Assembly (NCBI GenBank): GCA_024683775.1
Contig: GCA_024683775.1_4106.1
Reading direction: 5' to 3' (one strand)
DNA: 64,000 nucleotides
From: a phage
The number at the start of each line of letters is the position of its first letter. Positions within the stretch are counted from its first letter, which is position 1. The notes under the pieces were generated by a model. That model worked only from the letters and a program-made list of their open reading frames with translations. It was not told where the DNA came from and did no database searches. Of the stretch, positions 3,388 through 58,206 are shown one piece after another. The position numbers were made by a program, and so were the translations under genes.

Positions 3388-5706
3388 ATGATTAACGTAA
3401 CCAAGCGTAATGGAAAAAAAGAACCGTTATCTTTGGATAAGATCCATCAAATTTTATTTTTTGCTGCCGAAGGGCTGAGTGGTGTATCTGTTTCCGAAAT
3501 TGAAATTCGTGCACAACTTCAATTCTTTGAAGGTATTGAAACAAATACTATTCATGATATTCTGATTAAATCAGCAGCAGAACTTATTTCTGAAGATACA
3601 CCAAACTACCAATACGTTGCTGGTCGCTTACTAAATTATAGTATCCGTAAGCAAGTGTATGGTGACTATGACCCTATCAAGTACACTGCACATCTACAAG
3701 AAATGGTAGATACAAAAATCTATGATCCAGAAATTCTTGAGAAATACACACTTCAAGAAATTGAAGAGCTTGGACGTTACATCAAACATAAACGTGATGA
3801 TAAATTCACTTATGTTGCTATGCGTCAGTGGGAAGGAAAGTATCTATATAAGAATCGCGTAACTAAGAAAATCTACGAAACTCCACAAATGGCATATATG
3901 ACCATTGCAGCAATCATCTTTATGGAGTATGATCGCTCTGTACGTATGTCTTATGTTAAGAAGTTTTATGATGCTGTTAGTAACTTTGATATCAGTCTCC
4001 CGACTCCTATCATGGCTGGTCTACGTACCAATACACGTCAGTTTAGTTCTTGTGTAGTACTAAACGTTGGGGATAGTCTAGATAGTATTGGTTCTTCTAA
4101 CCACGCTATCCTACGTTATATTTCCCGTAAAGCTGGACTTGGTATCAATATGGGCCGCATTCGTGCTCTGGACTCCGAGATTCGTTCAGGTGATGCAGTA
4201 CACACTGGTTTGATTCCTTTCATTGCATCAACTGCTAAGACCGTTAAAAGCTGCTCTCAAGGTGGTGTACGTGGTGGTGCAGCAACAGTCCACTTCCCAT
4301 TGTGGCATTTGGAATTTGACAATCTTGTAGTACTGAAAAATAACAAAGGTACTGAGTTCAACCGTGTTCGACAACTTGACTATTGTTTCCAAGTGAACAA
4401 AACACTATATCAACGTTTAGTTGATGGCAAGAATATTACATTCTTTAGTCCTAATGAAGTTCCTGGGCTATATGAAGCATTCTGTTCTAACCAAAAAGAA
4501 TTTGAAAAGCTGTACAAGAAGTATGAAGCTGATCCAAGCATTCGTAAAAAATCTGTATCTGCTGTTGAAGTATTCAGTACTCTAATGACTGAACGTGCAG
4601 AAACTGGTCGTATCTATATTCAAAACATTGACCATGCAAACACACACTCAACCTTTATTGAATCAATTGCACCAATTGAACAATCCAACTTGTGTCAAGA
4701 AATCGCACTACCATCTGTGCCATTTGATGATATTAATACTGGTGAAGGTTTGATTAGTCTATGTACTTTGAGTGCAATCAACTGGGGTAACTTTGATCGT
4801 CCAGAAGATATGGAAACTGCTTGTGATCTTTCTGTACGTGCTCTTGATTCTCTATTGGATTATCAAGACTACCCAGTAGTTCATGCTGACCGTGCAACTA
4901 AAATGTATCGCCCATTAGGTGTTGGTATAATTAACTTTGCATACTTCCTTGCTAAACGTGGTTTGCGTTACAATGAAGCTGCATTGGAAACAGTTAACGA
5001 GTGGGCTGAAGCATGGTCTTATTATCTAATTAAATCTTCTGTTCAGCTTGCTAAAGAGAAAGGTAAGTGTGAAGGTTTTGACACACTAAAATATGCTAAA
5101 GGTATTTTACCAATTGATACCTATAAAGAAGATATTGATGCGTTGGTATCTCCTGAACTAAAACAAGATTGGGAAACATTGCGTCAGGATATCAAACAAT
5201 ATGGTATTCGTAACGCAACAACTATGGCACTGATGCCAGCAGAAACTAGTGCACAAATCAGTAACAGTACTAATGGTATTGAGAAACCTCGTTCACTTGT
5301 AACTAAGAAACTATCTAAAGATGGTATTCTGAAACAAGTAGTTCCTGAAATCAATAAGTTGAAAAACAAATATGATTTATTGTGGGACCAGAAAGATAAC
5401 ATCGGTTATCTACAAATCTGTGGTGTTCTTCAGAAATACATTGACCAAAGTATCAGTGTGAATACCAGTTACAATCCAGCACACTTCCCTGATGGTAAGT
5501 TGCCAATGTCAACACTACTAACTGAATTAATGTATGCATACAAAGTTGGTTTGAAAAATCTGTACTATCATAATACTAATGATGGTTCTGATGAAGTTGA
5601 TGTTGAGAAAGTACTAAAAGAAGCTGCAAAACCAGAATCAGGACAGTTTGTGTTGCCTACACTACCTGACTTAGATGAAGGTGATTGTGATAGTTGTAAG
5701 ATCTAA
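3388..5706 (+). CDS. nrdA: ribonucleoside-diphosphate reductase alpha subunit (class Ia)
   Basis: 772 aa; N-terminal ATP-cone (VTKRNGKKEPLSLDKI), overall architecture and C-terminal CxxC tail typical of NrdA. Confidence 0.95.
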   Translation: MINVTKRNGKKEPLSLDKIHQILFFAAEGLSGVSVSEIEIRAQLQFFEGIETNTIHDILIKSAAELISEDTPNYQYVAGRLLNYSIRKQVYGDYDPIKYTAHLQEMVDTKIYDPEILEKYTLQEIEELGRYIKHKRDDKFTYVAMRQWEGKYLYKNRVTKKIYETPQMAYMTIAAIIFMEYDRSVRMSYVKKFYDAVSNFDISLPTPIMAGLRTNTRQFSSCVVLNVGDSLDSIGSSNHAILRYISRKAGLGINMGRIRALDSEIRSGDAVHTGLIPFIASTAKTVKSCSQGGVRGGAATVHFPLWHLEFDNLVVLKNNKGTEFNRVRQLDYCFQVNKTLYQRLVDGKNITFFSPNEVPGLYEAFCSNQKEFEKLYKKYEADPSIRKKSVSAVEVFSTLMTERAETGRIYIQNIDHANTHSTFIESIAPIEQSNLCQEIALPSVPFDDINTGEGLISLCTLSAINWGNFDRPEDMETACDLSVRALDSLLDYQDYPVVHADRATKMYRPLGVGIINFAYFLAKRGLRYNEAALETVNEWAEAWSYYLIKSSVQLAKEKGKCEGFDTLKYAKGILPIDTYKEDIDALVSPELKQDWETLRQDIKQYGIRNATTMALMPAETSAQISNSTNGIEKPRSLVTKKLSKDGILKQVVPEINKLKNKYDLLWDQKDNIGYLQICGVLQKYIDQSISVNTSYNPAHFPDGKLPMSTLLTELMYAYKVGLKNLYYHNTNDGSDEVDVEKVLKEAAKPESGQFVLPTLPDLDEGDCDSCKI

Positions 5707-5711
5707 TTAAA

Positions 5712-5737
5712 GATCCCGCTTCGGCGGGATTTATTTC
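5712..5737 (+). terminator. intrinsic terminator
   Basis: ATCCCGC-TTCG-GCGGGAT hairpin followed by T-rich run. Confidence 0.7.
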
Positions 5738-5751
5738 ATAGGAGTGATATA

Positions 5752-6525
5752 ATGAAAGTTGACTATCGTAGTCCAATAGATATTGGATTCATAGAAGAAT
5801 TTTGGGATGATCTTGATATGGATATGATTGTTCGCTATCAAAAACTCCCACAAGACTTTATAAAAAAACATTTTGATAAAATGAACCCTAATATGTTAGC
5901 TCGATATCAAACAATGACAACTGATTTTCTTAAAGAAAAGTGGGAGTGGTTTGATAAAAATGTTATTGCACAATATGTAGTCATGCCAATGGAATTGATT
6001 ATGGAAAAATGGAATGACTTCAAAGATAACTTTCTGGATACTGTTGCTAAGTATCAAAAACTAACACAAGATTTTATTCAAGACAAATGGAATGACCTTG
6101 TTGAATTTAGAGATGGTGTAATGTCGGAAATTTCCAGATACCAAAAACTAACACTTGATTTCATTAAAGATAAATGGGATTATATTGATAAGAACTATAT
6201 TTCATATTATCAAACTTTAACGGTTGATTTTATCAAAGATAATATTACTGCATTAAATGTTGCAGCAGTATCCGCATTTCAAATACTATCGGATGATATA
6301 CGCTCATTGATGGGGTTAGAAGCACCAGCAAAAACTATTACGGGTAATCAAATACTCGCGTTGGACCCATGTGCCGATGGTATGGCTCGATACAATGCTC
6401 ATACACCTGACAATAATACAGTTTTGACATGGAATGAACTACTTACACTACACTTGGGTTCACAAGAAGGAATTAGTGATATCCATTGGCTATCATATAA
6501 ATTGGGTCATAAAATTAATACATAA
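5752..6525 (+). CDS. tandem-repeat protein (about 6 repeats of ~22-27 aa, core YQKLTxDFIxDKW)
   Basis: Repeats visible in translation: RYQKLPQDFIKKHF / RYQTMTTDFLKEKW / AKYQKLTQDFIQDKW / SRYQKLTLDFIKDKW / SYYQTLTVDFIKD. Confidence 0.6.
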   Translation: MKVDYRSPIDIGFIEEFWDDLDMDMIVRYQKLPQDFIKKHFDKMNPNMLARYQTMTTDFLKEKWEWFDKNVIAQYVVMPMELIMEKWNDFKDNFLDTVAKYQKLTQDFIQDKWNDLVEFRDGVMSEISRYQKLTLDFIKDKWDYIDKNYISYYQTLTVDFIKDNITALNVAAVSAFQILSDDIRSLMGLEAPAKTITGNQILALDPCADGMARYNAHTPDNNTVLTWNELLTLHLGSQEGISDIHWLSYKLGHKINT

Positions 6526-6537
6526 AGGAATATATAT

Positions 6538-7662
6538 ATGTCAGTTTTCAAAATTAATGAGAAGTCTCACCTAGAAAAGAATATGTTTTTTGATGAAAGT
6601 GTTGATATTCAACGATTTGAAAGTAACAAATACTCTACACTTGAAAAACTAACTGAACAACAGAAAAGTTTCTTCTGGACACCAGGTGAAGTTGACGTAT
6701 CTAAAGATAAAATTGATTTTGCTAACCTCAATGATTCTGAGAAGCATATCTTTACATCAAACTTAAAACGTCAAATCCTTCTTGATTCAGTTCAAGGTCG
6801 TGGTCCTAATCTAATGCTACTGCCATATGCATCTCTACCTGAACTTGAAAACTTTATTGAAACATGGGCGTTCTTTGAAGGTGCTATTCATAGTAAATCA
6901 TATACACATATTATTCGTAACATTTATCCTAATCCATCTGAAGTTTTTGATACTATGTTGGACATTCCAGAAATCACCGATTGTGCTGCTGATGTTTCAA
7001 AATACTATGATGACCTTGATGAACTAGGAACATTGTATCGTGCATTAGGTGAAGGCACTCATACTGTTAATGGTAAAACTATTGAAATTAATATGTATGA
7101 TCTAAAGAAAAAACTATGGTTATGTTTGAATAGTATTAACATTCTTGAAGGTGTTCGTTTTTATGCTAGTTTTGCTTGTTCATGGGCATTTGCAGAGAAC
7201 AACCTCATGGAAGGTAATGCAAAGATTATTCGTCTAATTTGTCGTGATGAAAACCTTCATCTCGCAGCAACACAAATGATTTTACGTCTTCTAAAGAAAG
7301 AAGATCCAGATATGGTAAAAATTGCCGAAGAGTGCTATGATGAAGTACTGGAAATGTTTATGTCTGCTATTCGCCAAGAAGAAGCATGGGCAGATTTCCT
7401 CTTTAAAGATGGTTCTATTATTGGATTGAACTCTGAAATTCTTAAACAGTATGTTCGCTGGATTGGTTCTAAGCGTATGACTGCACTTGGTATCAAATGT
7501 CCATATACTGTATCCAAGAGTAACCCACTACCGTGGACTGAACACTGGGTAAGTGGTAGTTCTGTACAGGTAGCACCACAAGAAACTGAAATCAGTTCTT
7601 ATATCATTGGTGGTATTGTGAATGATATCCAAGGAGATACATTCTCGCCATTTAAACTATAA
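6538..7662 (+). CDS. nrdB: ribonucleoside-diphosphate reductase beta subunit
   Basis: 374 aa; R2-like sequence, uninterrupted (no intron). Confidence 0.93.
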   Translation: MSVFKINEKSHLEKNMFFDESVDIQRFESNKYSTLEKLTEQQKSFFWTPGEVDVSKDKIDFANLNDSEKHIFTSNLKRQILLDSVQGRGPNLMLLPYASLPELENFIETWAFFEGAIHSKSYTHIIRNIYPNPSEVFDTMLDIPEITDCAADVSKYYDDLDELGTLYRALGEGTHTVNGKTIEINMYDLKKKLWLCLNSINILEGVRFYASFACSWAFAENNLMEGNAKIIRLICRDENLHLAATQMILRLLKKEDPDMVKIAEECYDEVLEMFMSAIRQEEAWADFLFKDGSIIGLNSEILKQYVRWIGSKRMTALGIKCPYTVSKSNPLPWTEHWVSGSSVQVAPQETEISSYIIGGIVNDIQGDTFSPFKL

Positions 7663-14463: not shown

Positions 14464-15526
<1,063 letters not shown>

Positions 15527-15543
15527 CAGTATATAACCTAAAA

Positions 15544-17706
<2,163 letters not shown>

Positions 17707-17707
<1 letters not shown>

Positions 17708-18501
17708 TGCCAAGTAAAAGTAAAAGTCAAGCGAAATTCTTCGCTGCTGCTGCCCATAATCCTGAATTCGCCAAAAAAGCAGGGATTTCACAAAGTGCAG
17801 CAAAAGAGTGGAATGCAGCCGATGAAAAAGAGGGAAATCTTAAGAAAGGTTCAAAACTCCCTAATAAAGTAAAAGAATCTAGTATGCGTGGTTTGGTTGA
17901 TATTGTACAAGATGCAGAATTAGCTGATACAGAAGACAGAACTAGTGATATAATGGATTCATGTGAAGAAGACCATAAAGAGAAATTGGAAGAAATGCCA
18001 CAACGTTTCGATAGTTTCCAAGGCCAAGACCGTGACGAGTTCGTTGACAAAACTGCTGAGATGACAGGTAAGCACAACATGGTTAAGTTCGCAGAACACA
18101 AAGATTATGATGTGTTTATGAATAAGAATGGTACTGGGTTTATTGCCTATGATAAAGCGGGTAAACAGCTTGCTATCGTTAGTGGACATTTGTCGAATGA
18201 TGCAGTGGTTGGTGTACCACAAGTGTTTGAGATTTCTGCTACGGCCTCTAAAACTGGTACTAAAGGTATCATCTATAATATCTTTATGGATATGGTTTCT
18301 CATGGTATTAAAGTACTAAGTGACAGTCTTCACACAGATGATGCAATTAAATTCTGGACCCGATTGATTGGTTCACACCAAGTCTACATTGTGGGTGGTG
18401 GTGAAGTATTGGCTAAGGCTAGTCCAGAGAAGGTTCACAAGTACTGGAGTGATGATGAATTTAGTCCTAGTGCTGAATTACAATTACTTCTGGTAAAATA
18501 A
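17707..18501 (+). CDS. hypothetical protein
   Basis: ORF, ATGA overlap with upstream gene. Confidence 0.55.
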
Positions 18502-18508
18502 TAATTGT

Positions 18509-18537
18509 CGGGGCATTTAATGTCCCGATATTTTTTT
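18509..18537 (+). terminator. intrinsic terminator
   Basis: CGGGGCAT-TTA-ATGTCCCG hairpin followed by TTTTTTT. Confidence 0.65.
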
Positions 18538-18565
18538 GAGACAAACAAAGCATTGATGATACAAT
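18536..18565 (+). promoter_or_regulatory. sigma70-like promoter TTGAGA-18-TACAAT
   Basis: -35 and -10 upstream of the topoisomerase gene; shares TGAGACAAACAAA with the promoter at 1406. Confidence 0.5.
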
Positions 18566-18600: not shown

Positions 18601-20565
18601 ATGGCTAAGAAAGAAAGTGCTGTTCTTCAGGAACATGATGTACAACGTCTAAACGATTATCAACATGCTCGCTTACGTACTGAGATGTATCTGGGTTCAC
18701 GTTCTGTTCACGAAAGTCAAGTACTGATCTTTGGTGAGTCTGGATATGAAGTTAAAAACGTTGAGTGGGTTCCTGCAATTCTAACTGCTACTCGTGAAAT
18801 TATCGATAACAGCTTAGATGAATTTAAAAAAGCTGGAACAAAAGAGCCAGTACTCAAAGTTGATTTCAATGAAGAAGAGTTATCCTTTGAGATCAGTGAT
18901 AATGGTCGTGGTATTCCAATTGACTATGTTCCTGAGTATCAGAAAAACCTTTGTACAATGGTAATGACTGAAACTAAAACTGGTCGTAACTTTGATGATT
19001 CGAAGCGTGATGAAACAATCGGTCAGAATGGTTTGGGTGGTTCAGTTGCAATGATTGTAAGTTCTAAAGCTGAACTTGAAATCCATCGCCAAGGTCGCCC
19101 GTATAAAACACAAAGTAGCAATGACGGATATGACGGTTTTTATAAGTTCAATCAGAAGTTCGAAGAAGGAACTATTATGTTTCCTGAACTTCATGTACAT
19201 GAACCAACTATTCGTAAGGTTCAAGCAGATAAGACTGGAACAACAATTCGCTTCACTCTGAGTTCTGAGGTATTTCCTAACCGTAAACTGCCAACCGAAT
19301 TGTTATACAGTATTTTGAAAGAAATGTCTGCTGCTAACCCTACCTATAAGATTTTCCTTAACGGTAAGCGTATTGCAATTAAAGGAACTACTGAAAAAGC
19401 ACTATTCAACGCATCTAAACTGATGCAATTGAACGTTAAAGATGAATCATTCAACTTTAACAGTACTTTCTACATTGTTCCTAATGCAGTATCGGGTATG
19501 AACACTAACTTCCATATGCATGGTTTGGTTAACAATGCCCCAGCATTTGATGGCGGTACACATCTTGATACATTCAAGAAATTCTTCTCATTAGGAGTCG
19601 GGACTGCTCTAGAGAAAGAATCAAAGAAACGCAAGATGAAACCTAACCGCTCTGATATTGAAGAAGGTCTGTTGATTTATAACGTAACAACGATGAAAGC
19701 ACCATCATTCAACTCACAGATTAAATCAAAACTAACCAACGAAAACGTTATTCGTCCAATTCAACAAGCGATGAATTCTGAATGGTTCGATGAATTAGTC
19801 AAGAAGAACAAAGAGTGGATTGATGAAATTTTTGAACGCTGTGCTGCTCGTACCAACAAGAAAGATGCAGAAGAAGATCGCCGTCTAGCTAAAAAACTAC
19901 TGAAAGGTAAAGTTGCAAAACTATTGGACAGTACAGGTACGGATCGTTCCAAATGCATCCTACTAATTGCTGAGGGTGATTCTGCTATTTCCAACATGGC
20001 GAGTGCTCGTGATCCTAAAGTTCATGGTATTCTACCATTGCGTGGTAAAATTATGAACGTCAGTGGTAATGAGAAAACCAAAGAATTAATGGATTCAATG
20101 GCATTGCATGATATAATGGCGAGTATCAACCTGATTCCTGGTGTAAAAGCGGAAAGAGCAGACCTTAACTATGGTAAGCTTTATATCTGTGCCGATGAAG
20201 ATGAGGATGGAAAGAACATTGGTGCTTTAGTATGTAACTTCCTATACAAATTCTGGCCTGAACTATTCCAAGACCCAGAGAATCCATTTGTGTATATATT
20301 CAAAACACCATTCATCATTCTAGAGAAAGGTAAGGAATCCAAGTACTACTATGGTCATGATGTACATGAATACAACCCAGATGATTGGAAAGGTTGGAAA
20401 GCAACCCGTGCGAAAGGATTGGGTACGTTAGAAAAAGCAAACTTCCGTGATGCATTCACTAACAGTGTTGCAGTAGCGATTACAGATGATGGTCGCCTTG
20501 GTGAAACTCTTGATTTGATTTTCAACAAGAAACGTGCTGATGATCGTAAGAACTGGATGGAATAA
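18601..20565 (+). CDS. DNA topoisomerase II large subunit (GyrB-like ATPase + Toprim; fused gp39/gp60 type)
   Basis: 654 aa; Toprim EGDSA ... ADEDEDG; ATPase-type N-terminus. Confidence 0.9.
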   Translation: MAKKESAVLQEHDVQRLNDYQHARLRTEMYLGSRSVHESQVLIFGESGYEVKNVEWVPAILTATREIIDNSLDEFKKAGTKEPVLKVDFNEEELSFEISDNGRGIPIDYVPEYQKNLCTMVMTETKTGRNFDDSKRDETIGQNGLGGSVAMIVSSKAELEIHRQGRPYKTQSSNDGYDGFYKFNQKFEEGTIMFPELHVHEPTIRKVQADKTGTTIRFTLSSEVFPNRKLPTELLYSILKEMSAANPTYKIFLNGKRIAIKGTTEKALFNASKLMQLNVKDESFNFNSTFYIVPNAVSGMNTNFHMHGLVNNAPAFDGGTHLDTFKKFFSLGVGTALEKESKKRKMKPNRSDIEEGLLIYNVTTMKAPSFNSQIKSKLTNENVIRPIQQAMNSEWFDELVKKNKEWIDEIFERCAARTNKKDAEEDRRLAKKLLKGKVAKLLDSTGTDRSKCILLIAEGDSAISNMASARDPKVHGILPLRGKIMNVSGNEKTKELMDSMALHDIMASINLIPGVKAERADLNYGKLYICADEDEDGKNIGALVCNFLYKFWPELFQDPENPFVYIFKTPFIILEKGKESKYYYGHDVHEYNPDDWKGWKATRAKGLGTLEKANFRDAFTNSVAVAITDDGRLGETLDLIFNKKRADDRKNWME

Positions 20566-20615: not shown

Positions 20616-22028
20616 ATGGCTAAAAGTAAAAAAACCGAAAATCAAAGCATCGATAACCAAACACTAACTCTACTAGATTATAACAGTTCTGATTATGTGA
20701 ATACCACATCACTAGAATATTCAATGTACACACTAGACCGTGCAATCCCTGGGATTGATGGCCTTAAGAGTTCACAACGTAAAGCAATATTCACCCTCTC
20801 AAAAGTTAGTGGTGAAATCAAAACTGTATCATGTGCTGGTAAAATGATTAGTGATGGTATCTATCTACACGGTGATACATCTGCATCTGGAACTCTCCAG
20901 AACCTAGCATCACCAGTGGTAAACAACTACCCACTCATTGGTAAACGTGGTGGTTTTGGTACACAAGTAAACAGTACTCCAGCTTCTGCTCGTTATACTT
21001 ATGTTAAAAAGAATAAAAGTACTGAAATGTTAGTGCTACGTGACGCTGACATTATTCCAATGAAAGAGAACTATGATGGTACTACAATGGAACCAAGTTT
21101 CTTTTTACCTATCATCCCACTATCTTTGTTTGGTAACGATAGTATGTCAGTAGGTTATAAGAGTACAATTCTACCACATAAGATTGAAGATGTTATTGAT
21201 AACTGTATTCGTGCTATTGATAAAAAACCATTAAAAGAAATGACTCCATACTATGTTTCATGTGGTGCAAGTGATATCGTAACTAAGCTTGATGAAAACA
21301 AATATGAGTTCTATGGTAAAGCACAAGTAATTGATGCCAGTACTGTTAAAGTGACAGGTCTACCACCAAACTACAGTATTGAGAAATTCATCGAGAAACT
21401 CATTAAGATGAGCGATGATGGTGATATTCGTGATTATGATAATGATAGTACTGATGTTATTGATATCACAATCAAACTACCACGCGGTACATCTGCTAAA
21501 TGGGTGGAGAAAGATGTAATTGAATACTTTGGCATTCATAAGAAGATGACACAAATCCTAACTGTTCTAGGTGAGAATGGTAAGGTTAAAGTCTATGATA
21601 ACACAATGGATTTGATTAAGGACTTTGTTGAATTCCGTTTCAAATACTATGTGAAACGCTATGAGAAGAAACTTGATGATTGTGCTGCTGAAGTACGTTA
21701 TAAGATTCTAATCAAAGAATGTTTTGATAATGATATGATTGCTAAGGTTAAGGGTTTTGCTAACCGTTCAGAAATGGTTGAGTTTGTTAAATCATTAAAC
21801 ACTGAAATCGAAGCAACCGATGAGAATATTCAAAGCATCGTAAACTTCCCATCATATCGTTGGACCCAAGACAATTATCAATCAGTACTAGCTGATATTC
21901 AACATAACTTGGATTTAATGGATGAATATAACAATCTCCTGTCGAATCATGATTTGATTTGGAACATCTATAAAGATGAGTTGAAAGAACTACGTAAGAT
22001 TGACTTCACGCCAAAAACTGAAGATTGA
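20616..22028 (+). CDS. DNA topoisomerase II medium subunit (GyrA-like, gp52 type)
   Basis: GyrA-like N-terminal region (RAIPGIDGLKSSQRK ... ARYTYV). Confidence 0.88.
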   Translation: MAKSKKTENQSIDNQTLTLLDYNSSDYVNTTSLEYSMYTLDRAIPGIDGLKSSQRKAIFTLSKVSGEIKTVSCAGKMISDGIYLHGDTSASGTLQNLASPVVNNYPLIGKRGGFGTQVNSTPASARYTYVKKNKSTEMLVLRDADIIPMKENYDGTTMEPSFFLPIIPLSLFGNDSMSVGYKSTILPHKIEDVIDNCIRAIDKKPLKEMTPYYVSCGASDIVTKLDENKYEFYGKAQVIDASTVKVTGLPPNYSIEKFIEKLIKMSDDGDIRDYDNDSTDVIDITIKLPRGTSAKWVEKDVIEYFGIHKKMTQILTVLGENGKVKVYDNTMDLIKDFVEFRFKYYVKRYEKKLDDCAAEVRYKILIKECFDNDMIAKVKGFANRSEMVEFVKSLNTEIEATDENIQSIVNFPSYRWTQDNYQSVLADIQHNLDLMDEYNNLLSNHDLIWNIYKDELKELRKIDFTPKTED

Positions 22029-22036
22029 TTATAAAC

Positions 22037-22068
22037 AGGGAAGACCTTTATGGGTCTTCCTTGTCCTT
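22037..22068 (+). terminator. intrinsic terminator
   Basis: GGAAGACC-loop-GGTCTTCC hairpin followed by T-rich tract. Confidence 0.6.
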
Positions 22069-22070
22069 TA

Positions 22071-22078
22071 TATAAATA
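22071..22078 (+). promoter_or_regulatory. T4-type late promoter box TATAAATA
   Basis: Exact TATAAATA about 40 nt upstream of the 807-aa ORF. Confidence 0.45.
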
Positions 22079-22116
22079 ATCTATAGATAATGGTAGCTTG
22101 GCTATGGAGAATTATA

Positions 22117-24513
22117 ATGACAACTTTTACCCCTAGATGGGATATAAAAGCCGATGCTCGATATATACAAGAAGGACAAGACATTCTTGTGCGTTTGAGT
22201 ATCAACAAAGAAACCACAACGGATGATAGTTATATACTTAATGAAAACGAATACTTAGAGATGATTCTAACTATTCAGGGTTTGGACAGTTCTGATGCAG
22301 TATTTCAACCAGAAGATCACTACGCAGTGTATGTTGGTAATGATGAATCTAATCTCACACCTATATCATCAGGTATTACTGGTAACAAGTTGATTAATGG
22401 TAAGCACAAATGTAAAATTGATAAAACTCAATTTGATCTATCGGCAAGCACTAATACCGAAGATGTTTATTTTATTAAATTGCATTGTAAAGATGATGGT
22501 ACATTTAACAACTCTGAACAGATTAACTTCTATCTTCAAGCAGTAAATGTTATGTACTATGGTAACATTTCCCCTAGTGGTGAAATTGGTTCAAATGAAG
22601 TAACAATTGAATATGATAGTCAGGAAGTGTGGGTTACTCCTGGAATCGAAATCGGTGATGATGACAAATTATATTGTATTGGTGATATTGAATACGGTTC
22701 CAACAGTACTTTATTTGTACAGGGATTTGGTCGTCGTCGTCCATTTATTTTAGGAACTGATACATCAACTGACATATCTCCTAGAGTATTTTATCCAGCG
22801 TATCGTCTACTCGATATGACCCCAGCAGAAGTTCCTGCTCGCCACATCACTGATGATTATGCAATCCTACGTCCTATTGATAATATATGGCCTGTATTTG
22901 GTATTAATAAAGAAATTAAGGTTAATATTCAAACTAGCTCTGGAGAGTTACTAGATTCAGGATTGGTTTTCAACCCAAATGGACAATTTCTGCAAACATT
23001 CCTATATGACTCTGATGCATGTGATGCATATTTCAAAGTTGAAATTGTTGATATTTTGAGTACATATAGTTATGACACTGACCGCTTCGCTATAAACCAA
23101 CGTTTCAAAGCATATCAAATGTGGGTATGTCCAGACAATGTAGATGGTATATACGCTGATGGTGATAAACCTTTACCTAATCATTTGTATCAGTTGAAAG
23201 ATAACGTTGTATATCCATATGTAATCTCTGGTGAATATGATCTAGGTGAAACAAAGCCAGTGTTTAAAAGTTCAGATTGGATTGATTTAGGATATTATGA
23301 TTCAAGCTTAGGTGAGAATATTATAGGTGAAGAGAAGATGTTCCGTGTTCTAGTGAACGCAGAAGAAGAAAACTCAATAGACTTCACAACTGATAGTGAT
23401 TTAGGTAGTATTCATGTGGGTGAATATTTCGGTCACAGTACTTATCCACAAATACAAACTACCAGTACTAATCAGGTATCTTATGTATTAGATGGTGGGC
23501 CTGATGATATTCGCAAATATGGTTTGGACCTCACCGCAGATGGGTTCTTGGTCGGAACTGCATATGCAAAAAGTTTAGATTTCAGTGCAAATGATGATAT
23601 AAAATTGGAATTCAACATCAAAGCATATGACACTGAAGGTGGTGTTGCGTCCAAGTTATTTAAACTGAAAATTGTACGTGGTTTTGGACAAAACTACTTA
23701 AGTGCACATATTGTACCTTCTGTTTATTTTGAACGTGAATGGTTTAAGTGTATTAGTACACCATCATTTACAAAACAAGCTTTCCATCGACAATCAGATG
23801 ATAGATACGGGTTACAAAAAGTACCACGTATTCTATTAAAAGAAAACTTTTTGAGTCAGAACTATACTTACACTACGTTGAGTGATATTAAAAAAGTACT
23901 TAGGGAAAATATCATAAACCAAACTGGTGCAACTATACCTGATGGAAAATTTAGAATGGTAATGGGCAACTATAAAGTAATGTCAGCACTTGACAACCAA
24001 GGTAACTTGCAGTATGATATATTATACCGTGAAGTTTTACCCGCAGGTTCATTGGTGTCGGTTTCTAAGAATCCAAGAAGTTACACGCAAATTGATAACG
24101 GAACACTCGGTGAAATATTTGGCTTGCGTCAAAATATTTTTGCAGCAATTGGCGAAGACACAACTAACCTTGTGAAAGACCCAACTGATTTACAAAACCG
24201 TGGTTTGTATGTAGATGCTATACCAGGAATTTCTGATGAGATGCTAGATACTGTTCCTCGCTTCATGAATCACCCATACGAAGAAGATGGAGTTAAAAAG
24301 AAATTCATGCCAATCATTCCAGTTGCATACTGTGCACCAGGAAAGGGTGAAGCATTCTTTAACACTTTACTTCAGAACAATGAACATGGTAAGATGGTTG
24401 GTGTTGAGTTTGAAATCACAGGAGTTGAATTTGGATTCTTTGCACATGAATTCGAAAACTACGTTCATGATACATTTTTGATTTCATTACAAAACAGCAA
24501 TTTAGGAGGATGA
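22117..24513 (+). CDS. large hypothetical protein (about 800 aa), possibly late-expressed or structural
   Basis: Start moved to ATG at 22117 after GGAGA; no recognisable enzyme motif; late-promoter box upstream. Confidence 0.6.
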   Translation: MTTFTPRWDIKADARYIQEGQDILVRLSINKETTTDDSYILNENEYLEMILTIQGLDSSDAVFQPEDHYAVYVGNDESNLTPISSGITGNKLINGKHKCKIDKTQFDLSASTNTEDVYFIKLHCKDDGTFNNSEQINFYLQAVNVMYYGNISPSGEIGSNEVTIEYDSQEVWVTPGIEIGDDDKLYCIGDIEYGSNSTLFVQGFGRRRPFILGTDTSTDISPRVFYPAYRLLDMTPAEVPARHITDDYAILRPIDNIWPVFGINKEIKVNIQTSSGELLDSGLVFNPNGQFLQTFLYDSDACDAYFKVEIVDILSTYSYDTDRFAINQRFKAYQMWVCPDNVDGIYADGDKPLPNHLYQLKDNVVYPYVISGEYDLGETKPVFKSSDWIDLGYYDSSLGENIIGEEKMFRVLVNAEEENSIDFTTDSDLGSIHVGEYFGHSTYPQIQTTSTNQVSYVLDGGPDDIRKYGLDLTADGFLVGTAYAKSLDFSANDDIKLEFNIKAYDTEGGVASKLFKLKIVRGFGQNYLSAHIVPSVYFEREWFKCISTPSFTKQAFHRQSDDRYGLQKVPRILLKENFLSQNYTYTTLSDIKKVLRENIINQTGATIPDGKFRMVMGNYKVMSALDNQGNLQYDILYREVLPAGSLVSVSKNPRSYTQIDNGTLGEIFGLRQNIFAAIGEDTTNLVKDPTDLQNRGLYVDAIPGISDEMLDTVPRFMNHPYEEDGVKKKFMPIIPVAYCAPGKGEAFFNTLLQNNEHGKMVGVEFEITGVEFGFFAHEFENYVHDTFLISLQNSNLGG

Positions 24514-24514
24514 T

Positions 24515-24826
24515 ATGTTCAATCCATTTTTTGATCCATCAACCATGACCGAGAAAGAGTTACAATTGAAAATTAACGAACAATCGATGCGTATTACGTC
24601 TGCTCGTGCAGCAGGTATGAGTGATATGATTGTTGGTAACATGCAAACCGTTCTGAATCAGTGCTATGCTGAATTAGAGATTCGTCAGGGACAAAAAGAA
24701 AAAACCTCCTATGATGAGCAAGACCCATGTATATTTGACATGAACTCTTACTTAACGGATAACGAAGAGGATCAGAAGAAGAAAAATGAAAGTACAAGGA
24801 AACAGATTTATAAGTCCCAATGGTGA
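24515..24826 (+). CDS. hypothetical protein
   Basis: ORF with RBS AGGAGGATGAT. Confidence 0.45.
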   Translation: MFNPFFDPSTMTEKELQLKINEQSMRITSARAAGMSDMIVGNMQTVLNQCYAELEIRQGQKEKTSYDEQDPCIFDMNSYLTDNEEDQKKKNESTRKQIYKSQW

Positions 24827-25304
24827 TGTAAAATGTAACCTTAATGCAGTCGTGTATGCAATCAACTGTGGTGCAGATATTCAGTACTTACAGCTACAGG
24901 AGATTGATGAACCGGAACGATTGAAATTTAACGATAATTGTAAAAAATTTGGTTTAGAACAGCGTATGCTGGATTATACAATAGAACATGATAAAAACCA
25001 TGAGCTATGGCGTTATGATCCAGTGTACGATAACATCAACTTGCGTGAGTACTTTTTACAGAAATGTACATCGGATGAAGCCCGTGAACGTGTAATGTAT
25101 GAGATTGATTTGTTTGAACATTACAACATGACTAAGCTTTTAAGATGTATGATCTGGTTAGTTGATTATATGGAAGAGCACAATATTTTTTGGGGTCTTG
25201 GGCGTGGTAGTTCAGTGGCTTCGTATTGTTTGTTCCTGATTGATTTGCATATGGTTGATTCTTTGAAGTATAAACTAGATGTAAATGAATTTTTGAAATG
25301 GTAG
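24786..25304 (+). CDS. hypothetical protein
   Basis: ORF. Confidence 0.45.
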   Translation: MKVQGNRFISPNGDVKCNLNAVVYAINCGADIQYLQLQEIDEPERLKFNDNCKKFGLEQRMLDYTIEHDKNHELWRYDPVYDNINLREYFLQKCTSDEARERVMYEIDLFEHYNMTKLLRCMIWLVDYMEEHNIFWGLGRGSSVASYCLFLIDLHMVDSLKYKLDVNEFLKW

Positions 25305-25310
25305 AAAAAC

Positions 25311-25322
25311 ATGTGATATAAT
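25311..25322 (+). promoter_or_regulatory. extended -10 promoter (TGTGATATAAT)
   Basis: TGnTATAAT upstream of 25368 ORF. Confidence 0.45.
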
Positions 25323-25367: not shown

Positions 25368-25712
25368 ATGTCAAAACACACAACTTATCGTGGAACCACC
25401 ATTGATATGGATATGCTAAAGTATCAAAACCAGCACCAAGTAGCACTAGGTAATGCAAACCTAAATGCTCGTGGTGATAAGATTGGTTCAGGTGGTACGG
25501 TCATTAAAACCCGTGAAGAACTAATCCAAGAAAAAGAACGTGAAATGCAAATTCCTGATTTCATTCCTGAACACCAACTTCACAGTGCTGAATATAGTAC
25601 TGAAGAAGTATGGGATGATGAAAGCTTTGAAGTTCAACCACAAGAACCAGAAGTTGAAGTATCTGAAGAGAAGAAAGCTCCACGCCGAGCAAAAACTAAA
25701 GATCAGGAGTAA
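25368..25712 (+). CDS. hypothetical protein
   Basis: ORF. Confidence 0.45.
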   Translation: MSKHTTYRGTTIDMDMLKYQNQHQVALGNANLNARGDKIGSGGTVIKTREELIQEKEREMQIPDFIPEHQLHSAEYSTEEVWDDESFEVQPQEPEVEVSEEKKAPRRAKTKDQE

Positions 25713-25715
25713 TTC

Positions 25716-26042
25716 ATGACCAATAAAGTAATGACAGCTTGTAAAGGTAAAGTTATTGTAACTGAACTAGAACATGGTGAGCGTAAAACCGCAGGTGGTA
25801 TTGTACTGACAAGTGATGATGGTAAGATACGTGGTATTCGTTGTCGTTGGGCTAAAGTATATTCTGTTGGTGAAGACATTACCGATATCAAAGAAGGACA
25901 ATGGATTCTAATTGACCACGGTCGTTGGTCGAGAACTATTGAGATTGATGGTATTAAAATGAATCTCGTTGATTATCCAGCAGCAGTAAGTTTGGTATCT
26001 GACACTGATCCACGCATCTCTGCTCAAACATTTGGTCGTTAA
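25716..26042 (+). CDS. GroES-like co-chaperonin (gp31-type)
   Basis: KGKVIVTELEHGERKTAGGIVLT ... resembles GroES from memory. Confidence 0.65.
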   Translation: MTNKVMTACKGKVIVTELEHGERKTAGGIVLTSDDGKIRGIRCRWAKVYSVGEDITDIKEGQWILIDHGRWSRTIEIDGIKMNLVDYPAAVSLVSDTDPRISAQTFGR

Positions 26043-42706: not shown

Positions 42707-42997
42707 GTGATGATGATTTTTACGACGAACGATATGGGGAATCAGATGAGTGAACATCGTGCAGTACTTAAAAAGATTTTAAATGAACTTGGTGATGAGT
42801 TTAATGTTACTGAAGAAGAATATCAATGTTGGAAGAAGGATTTTGAACTCCTTGCTGAGTATGATAAAGTCTTCAATATGATTGGTGTCATTAGCCAGTA
42901 CTTACTTGGTGGTGGTCGAGCCAGTGCTTCAATTCTTGCATCTGCGATCATCTGTACTTCTCGATGGTGCGATGAAAAAAGTCTGGAAGATTTCTAA
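42707..42997 (+). CDS. hypothetical protein
   Basis: ORF. Confidence 0.4.
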   Translation: MMMIFTTNDMGNQMSEHRAVLKKILNELGDEFNVTEEEYQCWKKDFELLAEYDKVFNMIGVISQYLLGGGRASASILASAIICTSRWCDEKSLEDF

Positions 42998-43002
42998 ATA
43001 AG
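42990..43002 (+). promoter_or_regulatory. extended -10 promoter (TGcTATAAT)
   Basis: GATGCTATAAT upstream of the methyltransferase gene. Confidence 0.45.
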
Positions 43003-43049
43003 ATGCTATAATGTATTATAGTACCTTAACAATATAAAAAGGATTTTAT

Positions 43050-43910
43050 ATGAAACCTATCAGAGTACTGTCACTTTTTAATGGAATGAGCGTTGGATAT
43101 ATGGCATTGGCAGATGCAGGTATTCCAGTTGAAAAATATTACTCATCTGAAATTGACAAGTACGCAATTGCTGAATCTTCCGAGAATTTTCCTGATATTA
43201 TCCAGTTAGGTGATGTGACTAAGTGGAAAGAATGGGATATTGAGTGGGATAAGATAGATTTACTCATGGGAGGATTCCCATGTCAAGCCTGGTCTGTTGC
43301 TGGTAAGCAAGGTGGCTTGAATGATATACGTGGACAGTTATTTTTGGTTATGGTTGATATTTTTGAGCACATCAAAAGTGTAAATCCAAACTTGCAATTT
43401 CTGTTCGAGAATGTTAAAATGAAGGAAGATTTCAAAGAATACATTAATAGTATTTTAGGAATCACACCAGTACTGATAAATTCCCAGCATTATACGCCTC
43501 ACTTCAGGCAGAGATACTACTGGTGCAGTACTGATAAGCTTTTTATACCACCTGCATTATCAAATGCCCCTAAACTTCAAGATATCATTGAAGATGGTTG
43601 GTATACTGACAGAACCGCTTCGTACTGTATAGATGCTAACTATTTTAAGGGTGGTGATTGTAACCAGTACTTTAATAAATCAAGACGACAGTTGGTGTTT
43701 CGTGACCCAACGATTAATCGTCAATATCTATTGGAGAATGGTAAAAGAAATATTGACTATAGACACTTAAGTGTAGTAGAATGTTGTAAATTACAGGGTA
43801 TTCCTGTAGATTTCTTTAAAGTGTCTAGTAAGACACAAGCATACAAAATGCTTGGGAATGGATGGACTATGCCAGTTATATCACACTTACTAAGAGAGAT
43901 ATTCTTTTGA
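43050..43910 (+). CDS. DNA (cytosine-5)-methyltransferase
   Basis: Motif I LFNGMSVG, motif IV GFPCQ, motif VI ENV, QxRxR-like FRQRYY, motif X LGNGW. Confidence 0.8.
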   Translation: MKPIRVLSLFNGMSVGYMALADAGIPVEKYYSSEIDKYAIAESSENFPDIIQLGDVTKWKEWDIEWDKIDLLMGGFPCQAWSVAGKQGGLNDIRGQLFLVMVDIFEHIKSVNPNLQFLFENVKMKEDFKEYINSILGITPVLINSQHYTPHFRQRYYWCSTDKLFIPPALSNAPKLQDIIEDGWYTDRTASYCIDANYFKGGDCNQYFNKSRRQLVFRDPTINRQYLLENGKRNIDYRHLSVVECCKLQGIPVDFFKVSSKTQAYKMLGNGWTMPVISHLLREIFF

Positions 43911-54171: not shown

Positions 54172-54763
<592 letters not shown>

Positions 54764-56438: not shown

Positions 56439-58136
<1,698 letters not shown>

Positions 58137-58206
58137 AATATTCTCCTGAATTTTCTAAAAGTTATAATAATATTTAGTTACAATATTTATGATATAGATT
58201 AAAAAG

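Follow-up and report, generated by a model that had tools for sequence, protein, structure and literature searches.

Does a T4-type late promoter box amid replication genes mark a separately transcribed virion gene, or is it a chance match in an AT-rich spacer? This question is raised by positions 22,071 to 24,513 of a phage DNA stretch of 64,000 nucleotides (nt) (GenBank assembly GCA_024683775.1, contig GCA_024683775.1_4106.1; the whole stretch is called the window below), in which the octamer TATAAATA precedes a large open reading frame (ORF) directly behind the topoisomerase II genes. An earlier reading of this DNA, made from its letters alone (sequence-only reading), had described an exact late box about 40 nt before an ORF of about 800 amino acids (aa) that follows topoisomerase genes and their terminator. 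It had recognized no enzyme motifs in the protein, had taken it for late-expressed and possibly structural, had called such a gene among replication genes unusual relative to the T4 order, and had named fold prediction among the checks. According to our analysis, and with a probability of about 0.78, two middle-type replication operons enclose a late transcription unit here that stands on its own and encodes a virion protein.

Late Promoter Box, Terminator, and Start of the Gene

The box TATAAATA on the plus strand matched the T4-type late-promoter consensus exactly at the −10 position, and its end lies 38 nt upstream of ATG 22117. It occurs only once on both strands of the window, in an intergenic spacer, while 9.7 ± 3.3 copies were expected from dinucleotide shuffles and about 8–10 from the analytic Markov models of orders 1–3 used for motif-count expectations (Poisson P of about 0.0007–0.003 for one copy or fewer). 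The word is depleted, i.e., avoided, in the window overall; an example of an altered form of the box TATAAATA is TATACATA. The heptamer ATAAATA was found in 11 copies on the strand carrying nearly all genes and in one copy on the opposite strand, where 17–19 copies were expected under order-2 and order-3 models (P of about 1e-7) and 13.7 under order 1 (P of about 2e-5), and this lone antisense copy lies just upstream of a minus-strand gene (56439–58136). Such avoidance, together with the strict co-orientation with genes, is the pattern expected of a functional promoter word. A promoter scan of the plus strand from 21600 to ATG 22117 revealed neither a sigma-70-type promoter nor a −35 element; the sequence upstream of the box forms a hairpin.

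This hairpin (ACAGGGAAGACC-TTTA-TGGGTCTTCCTTGT, with a stem of 13 base pairs and a T-rich tail) directly follows the topoisomerase stop (22028), and six bases separate it from the box. RNA folding resulted in a dG of −21.5 kcal/mol and a z of −5.4, with none of 200 shuffles folding as well. A GC-rich hairpin, a T-run, and a location at the end of an operon, as is characteristic of intrinsic terminators, were found together at 22035–22064, the T-run being interrupted here (TTGTCCTTTAT) and cleaner in phages CBB, GAP32, and K64-1. As judged from the sequence, the putative terminator insulates the late box from the topoisomerase II operon.

The longest ORF in the program-made list comprises 22090–24513 (807 aa) and is closed by a TGA at 24513. 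We placed the start codon at ATG 22117, leading to a product of 798 aa, based on a GGAG located 7 nt 5′ of it and kept before it in all related loci, on the homologs, which all begin at the same methionine and have a conserved N-terminus with invariant P6 and W8, and on the choice of the GenBank annotators of fEgEco12, 121Q, and phAPEC6. ATG 22090 was rejected as a start, as it lies only 11 nt past the box and has no ribosome-binding site. With the true start codon fixed, the exact box, the distance to the gene, the size of the ORF, and the topoisomerase II subunits and hairpin preceding it agree with what the sequence-only reading had described.

In T4, late transcription starts 6–8 nt downstream of the late box. 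By analogy, late in infection the host RNA polymerase core with a phage gp55-like sigma factor would use the box as its −10 element, in the absence of a −35 element, and transcription would start near 22085 (22084–22086). The resulting mRNA would encode the virion protein and probably two small downstream genes, and the terminator would stop read-through from the topoisomerase operon. For phage CBB, an ATAAATA motif upstream of structural genes was likened to the T4 late promoter, and a gp55-like sigma factor, CBB_244, was described, with no gp33 or gp45 homologs found (PMC5259590). CBB_244 matched the gp55 family phrog_234 (late sigma factor; 5e-19), with cyanophage gp55 proteins among its relatives, and phage WPEC5, a 99% relative of the window, encodes a copy with 75.6% identity.

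Late Boxes and Virion Genes in the Window

We scanned 70 nt upstream of 36 plus-strand gene starts between 1 and 30.2 kilobases, with starts taken from ORF calls and the annotation of relatives, and detected an NTAAATA box at −36 to −45 in six of them (Table 1). The six gene groups behind these boxes are exactly the groups of this span whose phAPEC6 orthologs were detected in virions, and PHROG matches agree. Within the span, the phAPEC6 proteome has one further entry, the small subunit of topoisomerase (2 peptides). The full T4 octamer was only found in the box at 22071; the remaining boxes read A, C, or G followed by TAAATA.

Further boxes were found at 58184 (minus strand) and 58694. The minus-strand gene mentioned above (56439–58136) is tail-fiber/hydrolase-like (phrog_32409, phrog_16653) and has its own ATAAATA box upstream; within the early-gene half of the window, no other minus-strand gene of appreciable size is present, and this one would represent an isolated late gene in an early region. 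The heptamer CTAAATA at 42994 and 54347 was rejected as a late promoter, as both copies lie at or next to the −35 element of sigma-70-type early promoters (42994–43050 and 54347–54402; type TTGACT-N17-TGTATAAT), whose −35 region contains or adjoins CTAAATA. The site at 54347 belongs to a TTGACT...TGTATAAT promoter, while the one at 42994 ends in TATAAT and precedes a DNA methyltransferase gene (43050–43910).

Virion Association of the Gene Product

The deduced protein revealed a full-length match to phrog_13911, annotated as virion structural protein (E = 0, 1366 bits, residues 1–797 of 798). Its phAPEC6 ortholog gp158c (80% identical, identified by position) was found in purified virions with 9 unique peptides and 17.1% coverage (PMC7247149 Table 1), and GAP32_321 and RaK2 ORF160 are marked as detected by mass spectrometry (PMC5259590 Table S1). 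Since the main text of the RaK2 paper does not mention ORF160, the RaK2 and GAP32 detections rest on the comparison table of the CBB paper. The cryo-electron microscopy paper on phiKp24 contained nothing on the phrog_13911 family. The coverage of gp158c is akin to that of portal, baseplate wedge, and tail-fiber proteins and far under that of the major capsid and sheath proteins (PMC7247149), which points to a low-to-moderate copy number.

Conservation Among Related Phages

Based on its sequence relationships, the window was assigned to a Rak2-like jumbo coliphage. Eight Escherichia jumbo phages, among them BF17, vB_Ec-M-J, fEgEco12, Ecwhy_1, and WPEC3/5, shared 99.1–99.4% identity with the region; the values were 98.4% for CMSTMSU, 98.1% for TH47, and about 77% for the group of 121Q, PBECO4, and phAPEC6 (Asteriusvirus). 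At the protein level, identities were 99% for BF17 and fEgEco12, 80% for 121Q, 55% for RaK2 and K64-1, and 45–46% for the full-length relatives from phages GAP32, CBB, Serratia BF, and Yersinia fHe-Yen9. The orthologs are fEgEco12 g420, 121Q gp54, phAPEC6 gp158c, GAP32_321, CBB_326, RaK2 ORF160, and K64-1 gp202.

Altogether, 17 related loci were inspected, including a metagenomic contig (L009) whose protein is alignable over the C-terminal half only. All 17 displayed a box with a TAAATA core at −32 to −44, followed by GGAG and ATG, and this core stays invariant while the hairpin and spacer sequences diverge. The two bases preceding the core vary (TA, CA, AA, or AG), and the exact octamer is present in six of the 17 loci, including 121Q and phAPEC6, as well as in the window. 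In 16 of the loci, a GC-rich hairpin with a T-run is situated directly between the topoisomerase stop and the box, with diverged stem sequences (GGAAGACC, GGACGC, GGATGC, GGATAC, and GGGAGCAC among relatives); in L009, the hairpin also lies behind the topoisomerase gene, with an ORF of 116 aa between hairpin and box.

The conserved gene order comprises helicase, IF3, ClpS, KTSC protein, virion genes, topoisomerase II, virion gene, small ORF, a fragment of the DNA polymerase III alpha subunit (PolIII-alpha), GroES-like gene, and clamp loader. Thus, a late gene amid replication genes is ancient and normal for this clade and not a recent insertion; virion genes are scattered through Rak2-like genomes in general (PMC7247149 Fig. 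2 legend; PMC5259590). The arrangement that the sequence-only reading had called unusual is therefore unusual against the T4 order but not within the Rak2-like clade, where the position is conserved. Its proposal of a late promoter is borne out by the exact T4 consensus, the missing sigma-70 promoter, the core in all 17 loci, and a gp55-family sigma factor in near-identical phages, and that of a structural protein by membership in phrog_13911 and orthologs in the virions of phAPEC6, GAP32, and RaK2 (PMC7247149, PMC5259590).

Some relatives displayed further differences around the topoisomerase genes. An exact TATAAATA was also present in CBB, GAP32, and the distant contig L009 (L002 4383–4390, L005 3390–3397, and L009 4024–4031, respectively), where it falls at the end of the gene before topoisomerase II and about 100–120 nt upstream of the latter; it is absent at the same place in the window. 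K64-1 harbors a hef-like homing endonuclease gene between the topoisomerase II subunit genes (L004 3796–5505), and in L009 the subunits are fused to a single protein of 1135 aa (4147–7554).

Domain Structure and Wider Family

No match for the protein was found in Pfam, NCBIfam, or PDB sequences, which is in line with the absence of recognizable enzyme motifs noted before, and a profile of 39 sequences searched against PDB sequences likewise resulted in no hits. Fold prediction with AlphaFold2 based on 39 homologs (pLDDT 87.6, pTM 0.49, consistent with a multi-domain chain) led to an approximate layout of beta-sandwich/immunoglobulin (Ig)-like domains at residues 1–390, a He_PIG-like Ig domain at 395–525, and a 2H-phosphoesterase-like domain at 527–790, with residues 1 to about 525 modeled nearly all as beta strand. 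Structural matches were to cadherin, cohesin, and Calx-beta sandwiches, and Foldseek of the full-length model against the PDB yielded generic cadherin and S-layer Ig arrays with a TM of about 0.1, uninformative on function. In distant relatives, the part homologous to residues of about 395–525 matched He_PIG.

A separate model of residues 525–798 (pLDDT 76.9, pTM 0.78) was compared in the same way, and the top twelve Foldseek matches were all 2H proteins, with a probability of 1.00 (0.99 for the twelfth) and a target-normalized TM of 0.47–0.66. The figures listed for 2H proteins are 10.7 for Usb1, 10.3 for the AKAP18 central domain, 10.1 for a Pyrococcus LigT-like protein, 9.7 for Deinococcus CPDase, 8.8 for Acb1, and 8.4 for a Penguinpox cGAMP phosphodiesterase (PDE). 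The C-terminal secondary structure consists of a duplicated beta-alpha-beta-alpha-beta-beta unit, as in the 2H fold, and the model displays the corresponding two-lobed alpha+beta fold. Across the 39 homologs, residues 520–798 contain no conserved H-x-T/S motif, the strands expected to bear the motifs reading RILLKEN (572–578) and IIPVAYC (733–739), as placed by secondary-structure order and not by superposition. Among 20 distant family members no histidine is conserved, and the shared residues are mainly G, P, A, and aromatic residues in addition to R540, R558, D561, and D626. Since the H-x-T/S motifs are missing, we take the domain to use the 2H fold without catalysis, and on the model it is unlikely to be an enzyme.

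Searching 1.84 billion cluster representatives with a profile resulted in 103 proteins, most of which share only the C-terminal part of about 400 residues (Ig plus 2H-like). In these proteins, the shared part is usually found at the C-terminus or close to it, preceded by N-terminal regions of widely differing length that include He_PIG Ig domains and CBM5/12 carbohydrate-binding modules. By analogy with T4 Hoc, this combination of a constant C-terminal module and a changing display region at the N-terminus points to an adhesin-like component exposed on the virion. Based on the modeled N-terminal string of beta-sandwich/Ig-like domains and on distant members that swap this part for He_PIG and CBM5/12, we tentatively propose, at somewhat below even odds, that the protein is an externally displayed component of low-to-moderate copy number, such as a fiber, whisker, or baseplate accessory, in which the conserved C-terminal module would act as a particle-binding anchor. 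Phages 121Q, phAPEC6, and CBB bear unassigned 'hairy' fibers on both capsid and sheath (PMC7247149, among other sources), and as a hypothesis only, the protein is a candidate for these appendages or for a partner of them. A wider proposal, which we consider unlikely, is that the catalytically dead 2H-fold module represents a new type of domain for virion attachment or ligand binding that is combined with exchangeable display domains at the N-terminus, found in about 100 clusters at 50% identity (those checked being phage-type), which could anchor or form 'hairy' fibers or still bind a nucleotide-like ligand.

In four homologs (P0045, P0064, P0085, and P0088, from Erwinia phages pEa_SNUABM_47/49/50 and Serratia phage BF), about 220 additional residues without a Pfam match are inserted between residues 259 and 265 and probably form an added display domain. 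An intein or homing endonuclease was rejected for this insertion in P0045, P0085, and P0088 based on the missing Pfam match and its placement between beta-sandwich domains.

Alternative Explanations

Several observations weigh against a late unit for a virion protein, and some of them would fit other explanations. In regard to transcription, the gp55-like gene is not part of the window and was only observed in relatives, and with no gp33 or gp45 homologs in CBB (PMC5259590) the mechanism of activation may differ from that of T4. The available part of the list of 35 late promoters of CBB holds no CBB_326 entry (PMC5259590). No transcriptome of any Rak2-like coliphage was found in the literature, so that we infer the late timing from sequence. 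Together with the AT-rich composition of the window (34.7% GC) and the interrupted T-tail of the hairpin, which makes some read-through plausible, this would agree with TATAAATA being a chance match in a spacer of 35% GC and with expression of the gene by terminator read-through from the promoter at 18537. We consider this quite improbable, since the word is depleted instead of frequent, the TAAATA core recurs unchanged and equally spaced in all 17 diverged loci, the boxes of the window match the virion-gene groups in six of six cases, and the hairpin is retained at its position despite the turnover of its sequence.

In regard to the particle, the late virion gene is faced with the failure of the CBB mass spectrometry to detect CBB_326 (PMC5259590 Table S1) and with a phAPEC6 virion list that also includes the topoisomerase II small subunit, a RecA-like protein, SSB, and thymidylate synthase (PMC7247149). 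Detection alone is therefore no proof of a structural role. With the modest coverage of gp158c, the protein could thus be late-expressed but only copurifying, either passively packaged or as an assembly factor, and not a building block of the particle. Independent detection in three phages by three laboratories, nine unique peptides for gp158c, comparable to portal, baseplate wedge, and tail-fiber proteins (PMC7247149), and a modeled multi-Ig/beta-sandwich build with CBM5/12-bearing relatives, typical of exposed virion proteins, make this unlikely. Another reading of the C-terminal 2H-fold domain would be an active virion phosphodiesterase that degrades cyclic-nucleotide immune signals, as Acb1 and the poxvirus cGAMP PDEs do, or processes RNA ends. 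This was rejected as highly unlikely, as both H-x-T/S motifs are absent from the strands expected to bear them (as placed by secondary-structure order), the wider family retains neither the KEN triad nor H719, the sole invariant histidine, and no Pfam or NCBIfam 2H model matches.

Layout of the Unit and Neighboring Genes

The late unit is flanked by two replication operons, each preceded by a promoter of the 'promoter 2' type (Table 1). In the available part of PMC5259590, 'promoter 2' of CBB and GAP32 is described as combining a −35 element similar to TGAAAC with TGnTATAAT as an extended −10 element, the CBB form being TGAAACG...TGnTATAAT. The downstream promoter also feeds later genes and marks the return to replication-gene transcription. 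On the plus strand, no terminator was called from the virion gene to 26054, and the ATG of the 103-aa ORF lies one base past the stop codon of the virion gene. By this arrangement, the 103-aa ORF is probably translationally coupled to the virion gene, and the late transcript probably extends over this ORF and the 172-aa PolIII-alpha fragment. The order of small ORF and PolIII-alpha fragment is kept in CBB, GAP32, 121Q, K64-1, phAPEC6, and the distant contig L009.

Table 1. Features of the proposed late unit, its flanks, and the boxed gene groups of the window.
Feature	Position	Strand	Gene start behind box	Basis or remarks
Middle/early-type promoter TGAGAC-N-TGATACAAT	18537..18565	+		Ahead of topoisomerase operon; matches CBB 'promoter 2' class; compared with CBB Porf_324 (available part of PMC5259590 Table S6)
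Topoisomerase II large subunit	18601–20565	+		Topoisomerase II pair: PHROG 543 and 551; Pfam DNA_gyraseB, Toprim, DNA_topoisoIV
Topoisomerase II medium subunit	20616–22028	+		Topoisomerase II pair: PHROG 543 and 551; Pfam DNA_gyraseB, Toprim, DNA_topoisoIV
Intrinsic-terminator-like hairpin, 13 pairs, T-rich tail	22035..22064	+		Terminator call and RNA fold
TATAAATA, T4-type late promoter box	22071..22078	+		Sole copy in window; core conserved
GGAG ribosome-binding site	22106..22109	+		Sequence; conserved in all related loci
Gene for 798-aa virion-associated protein	22117..24513	+		phrog_13911, E = 0; orthologs; mass spectrometry in relatives
103-aa ORF	24515–24826	+		ATG 1 nt past virion-gene stop codon
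DNA polymerase III alpha fragment, 172 aa	24786–25304	+		Overlaps 103-aa ORF; PF07733 residues 15–95 only
Middle-type promoter TGAAATGGTAGAAAAACATGTGATATAAT	25293..25322	+		Before gene at 25368; near-identical to CBB Porf_329 (available part of PMC5259590 Table S6)
ORF	25368–25712	+		Downstream gene
GroES-like gene	25716–26042	+		Downstream gene
NTAAATA box	386	+	423	phAPEC6 gp183c/182c in virion proteome
NTAAATA box	2704	+	2740	phAPEC6 gp179c in virion proteome
NTAAATA box	13567	+	13610	phAPEC6 gp167c in virion proteome
NTAAATA box	15565	+	15601	phAPEC6 gp163c-162c-161c in virion proteome
NTAAATA box	22072	+	22117	phAPEC6 gp158c in virion proteome
NTAAATA box	28029	+	28074	phAPEC6 gp150c/149c in virion proteome

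Just upstream of these operons, the window carries genes for translation initiation factor IF3, a ClpS-like protease adaptor, and a KTSC-domain protein (14464–16146), and the same trio was identified in L009. The KTSC gene (15601) bears a late box and heads an operon with two virion protein genes (16136–18501).

Significance of the Proposed Late Unit

The gene, the presence of its product in virions, and the ATAAATA late motif are already published or annotated for relatives, including GenBank records with 99% identity, and are ordinary for this phage group, so that the biological addition is small. New points of modest weight are the clade-wide conservation of the cassette of terminator, late box, and gene, including a very distant relative, the strong avoidance of the late-box word on the antisense strand, and, as predicted, a catalytically dead 2H-phosphoesterase fold in a conserved C-terminal module joined to variable display domains. 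Virion genes that lie among replication genes in Rak2-like jumbo phages can be recognized by means of the T4 late-promoter word, which could also serve to map late units.

Comparison with Known Systems

Compared with T4 late promoters, which are built on TATAAATA and served by gp55 with gp33 and the gp45 clamp, the box at this locus is alike in the exact octamer, the absence of a −35 element, its position some tens of nt ahead of a virion gene, the avoidance of the word elsewhere, in particular on the antisense strand, and a gp55-family sigma factor in the clade. Unlike in T4, the clade fixes the TAAATA core only, with A, C, or G at the preceding positions, and gp33 and gp45 homologs were not found by the authors of the CBB study (PMC5259590). 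Among phrog_13911 members of Rak2-like phages, the copy of the window is an ordinary one, with a full-length hidden Markov model match, an identical gene neighborhood, and nothing material that sets it apart. From the 2H superfamily (LigT/ThpR, CPDase, Usb1, AKAP18, Acb1, and poxvirus cGAMP PDE), its C-terminal domain differs in the lost catalytic motifs, about 90 extra residues, and the missing sequence-profile match, while the trypanosome mitoribosomal protein ms64, which was among the fold matches, offers a likeness in its non-catalytic use of the 2H fold.

T4 Hoc carries a variable N-terminal Ig-like array on a conserved C-terminal capsid-binding part. Unlike Hoc, the protein of the window has no sequence relation to any Pfam family, Hoc included, is twice as large, and has a predicted 2H-like fold at its C-terminus, and its modest mass-spectrometry coverage argues against a decoration protein with one copy per hexamer. 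In its predicted overall plan, the protein resembles Hoc as a probable late virion protein with a variable N-terminal Ig-like/beta-sandwich array on a conserved C-terminal module.

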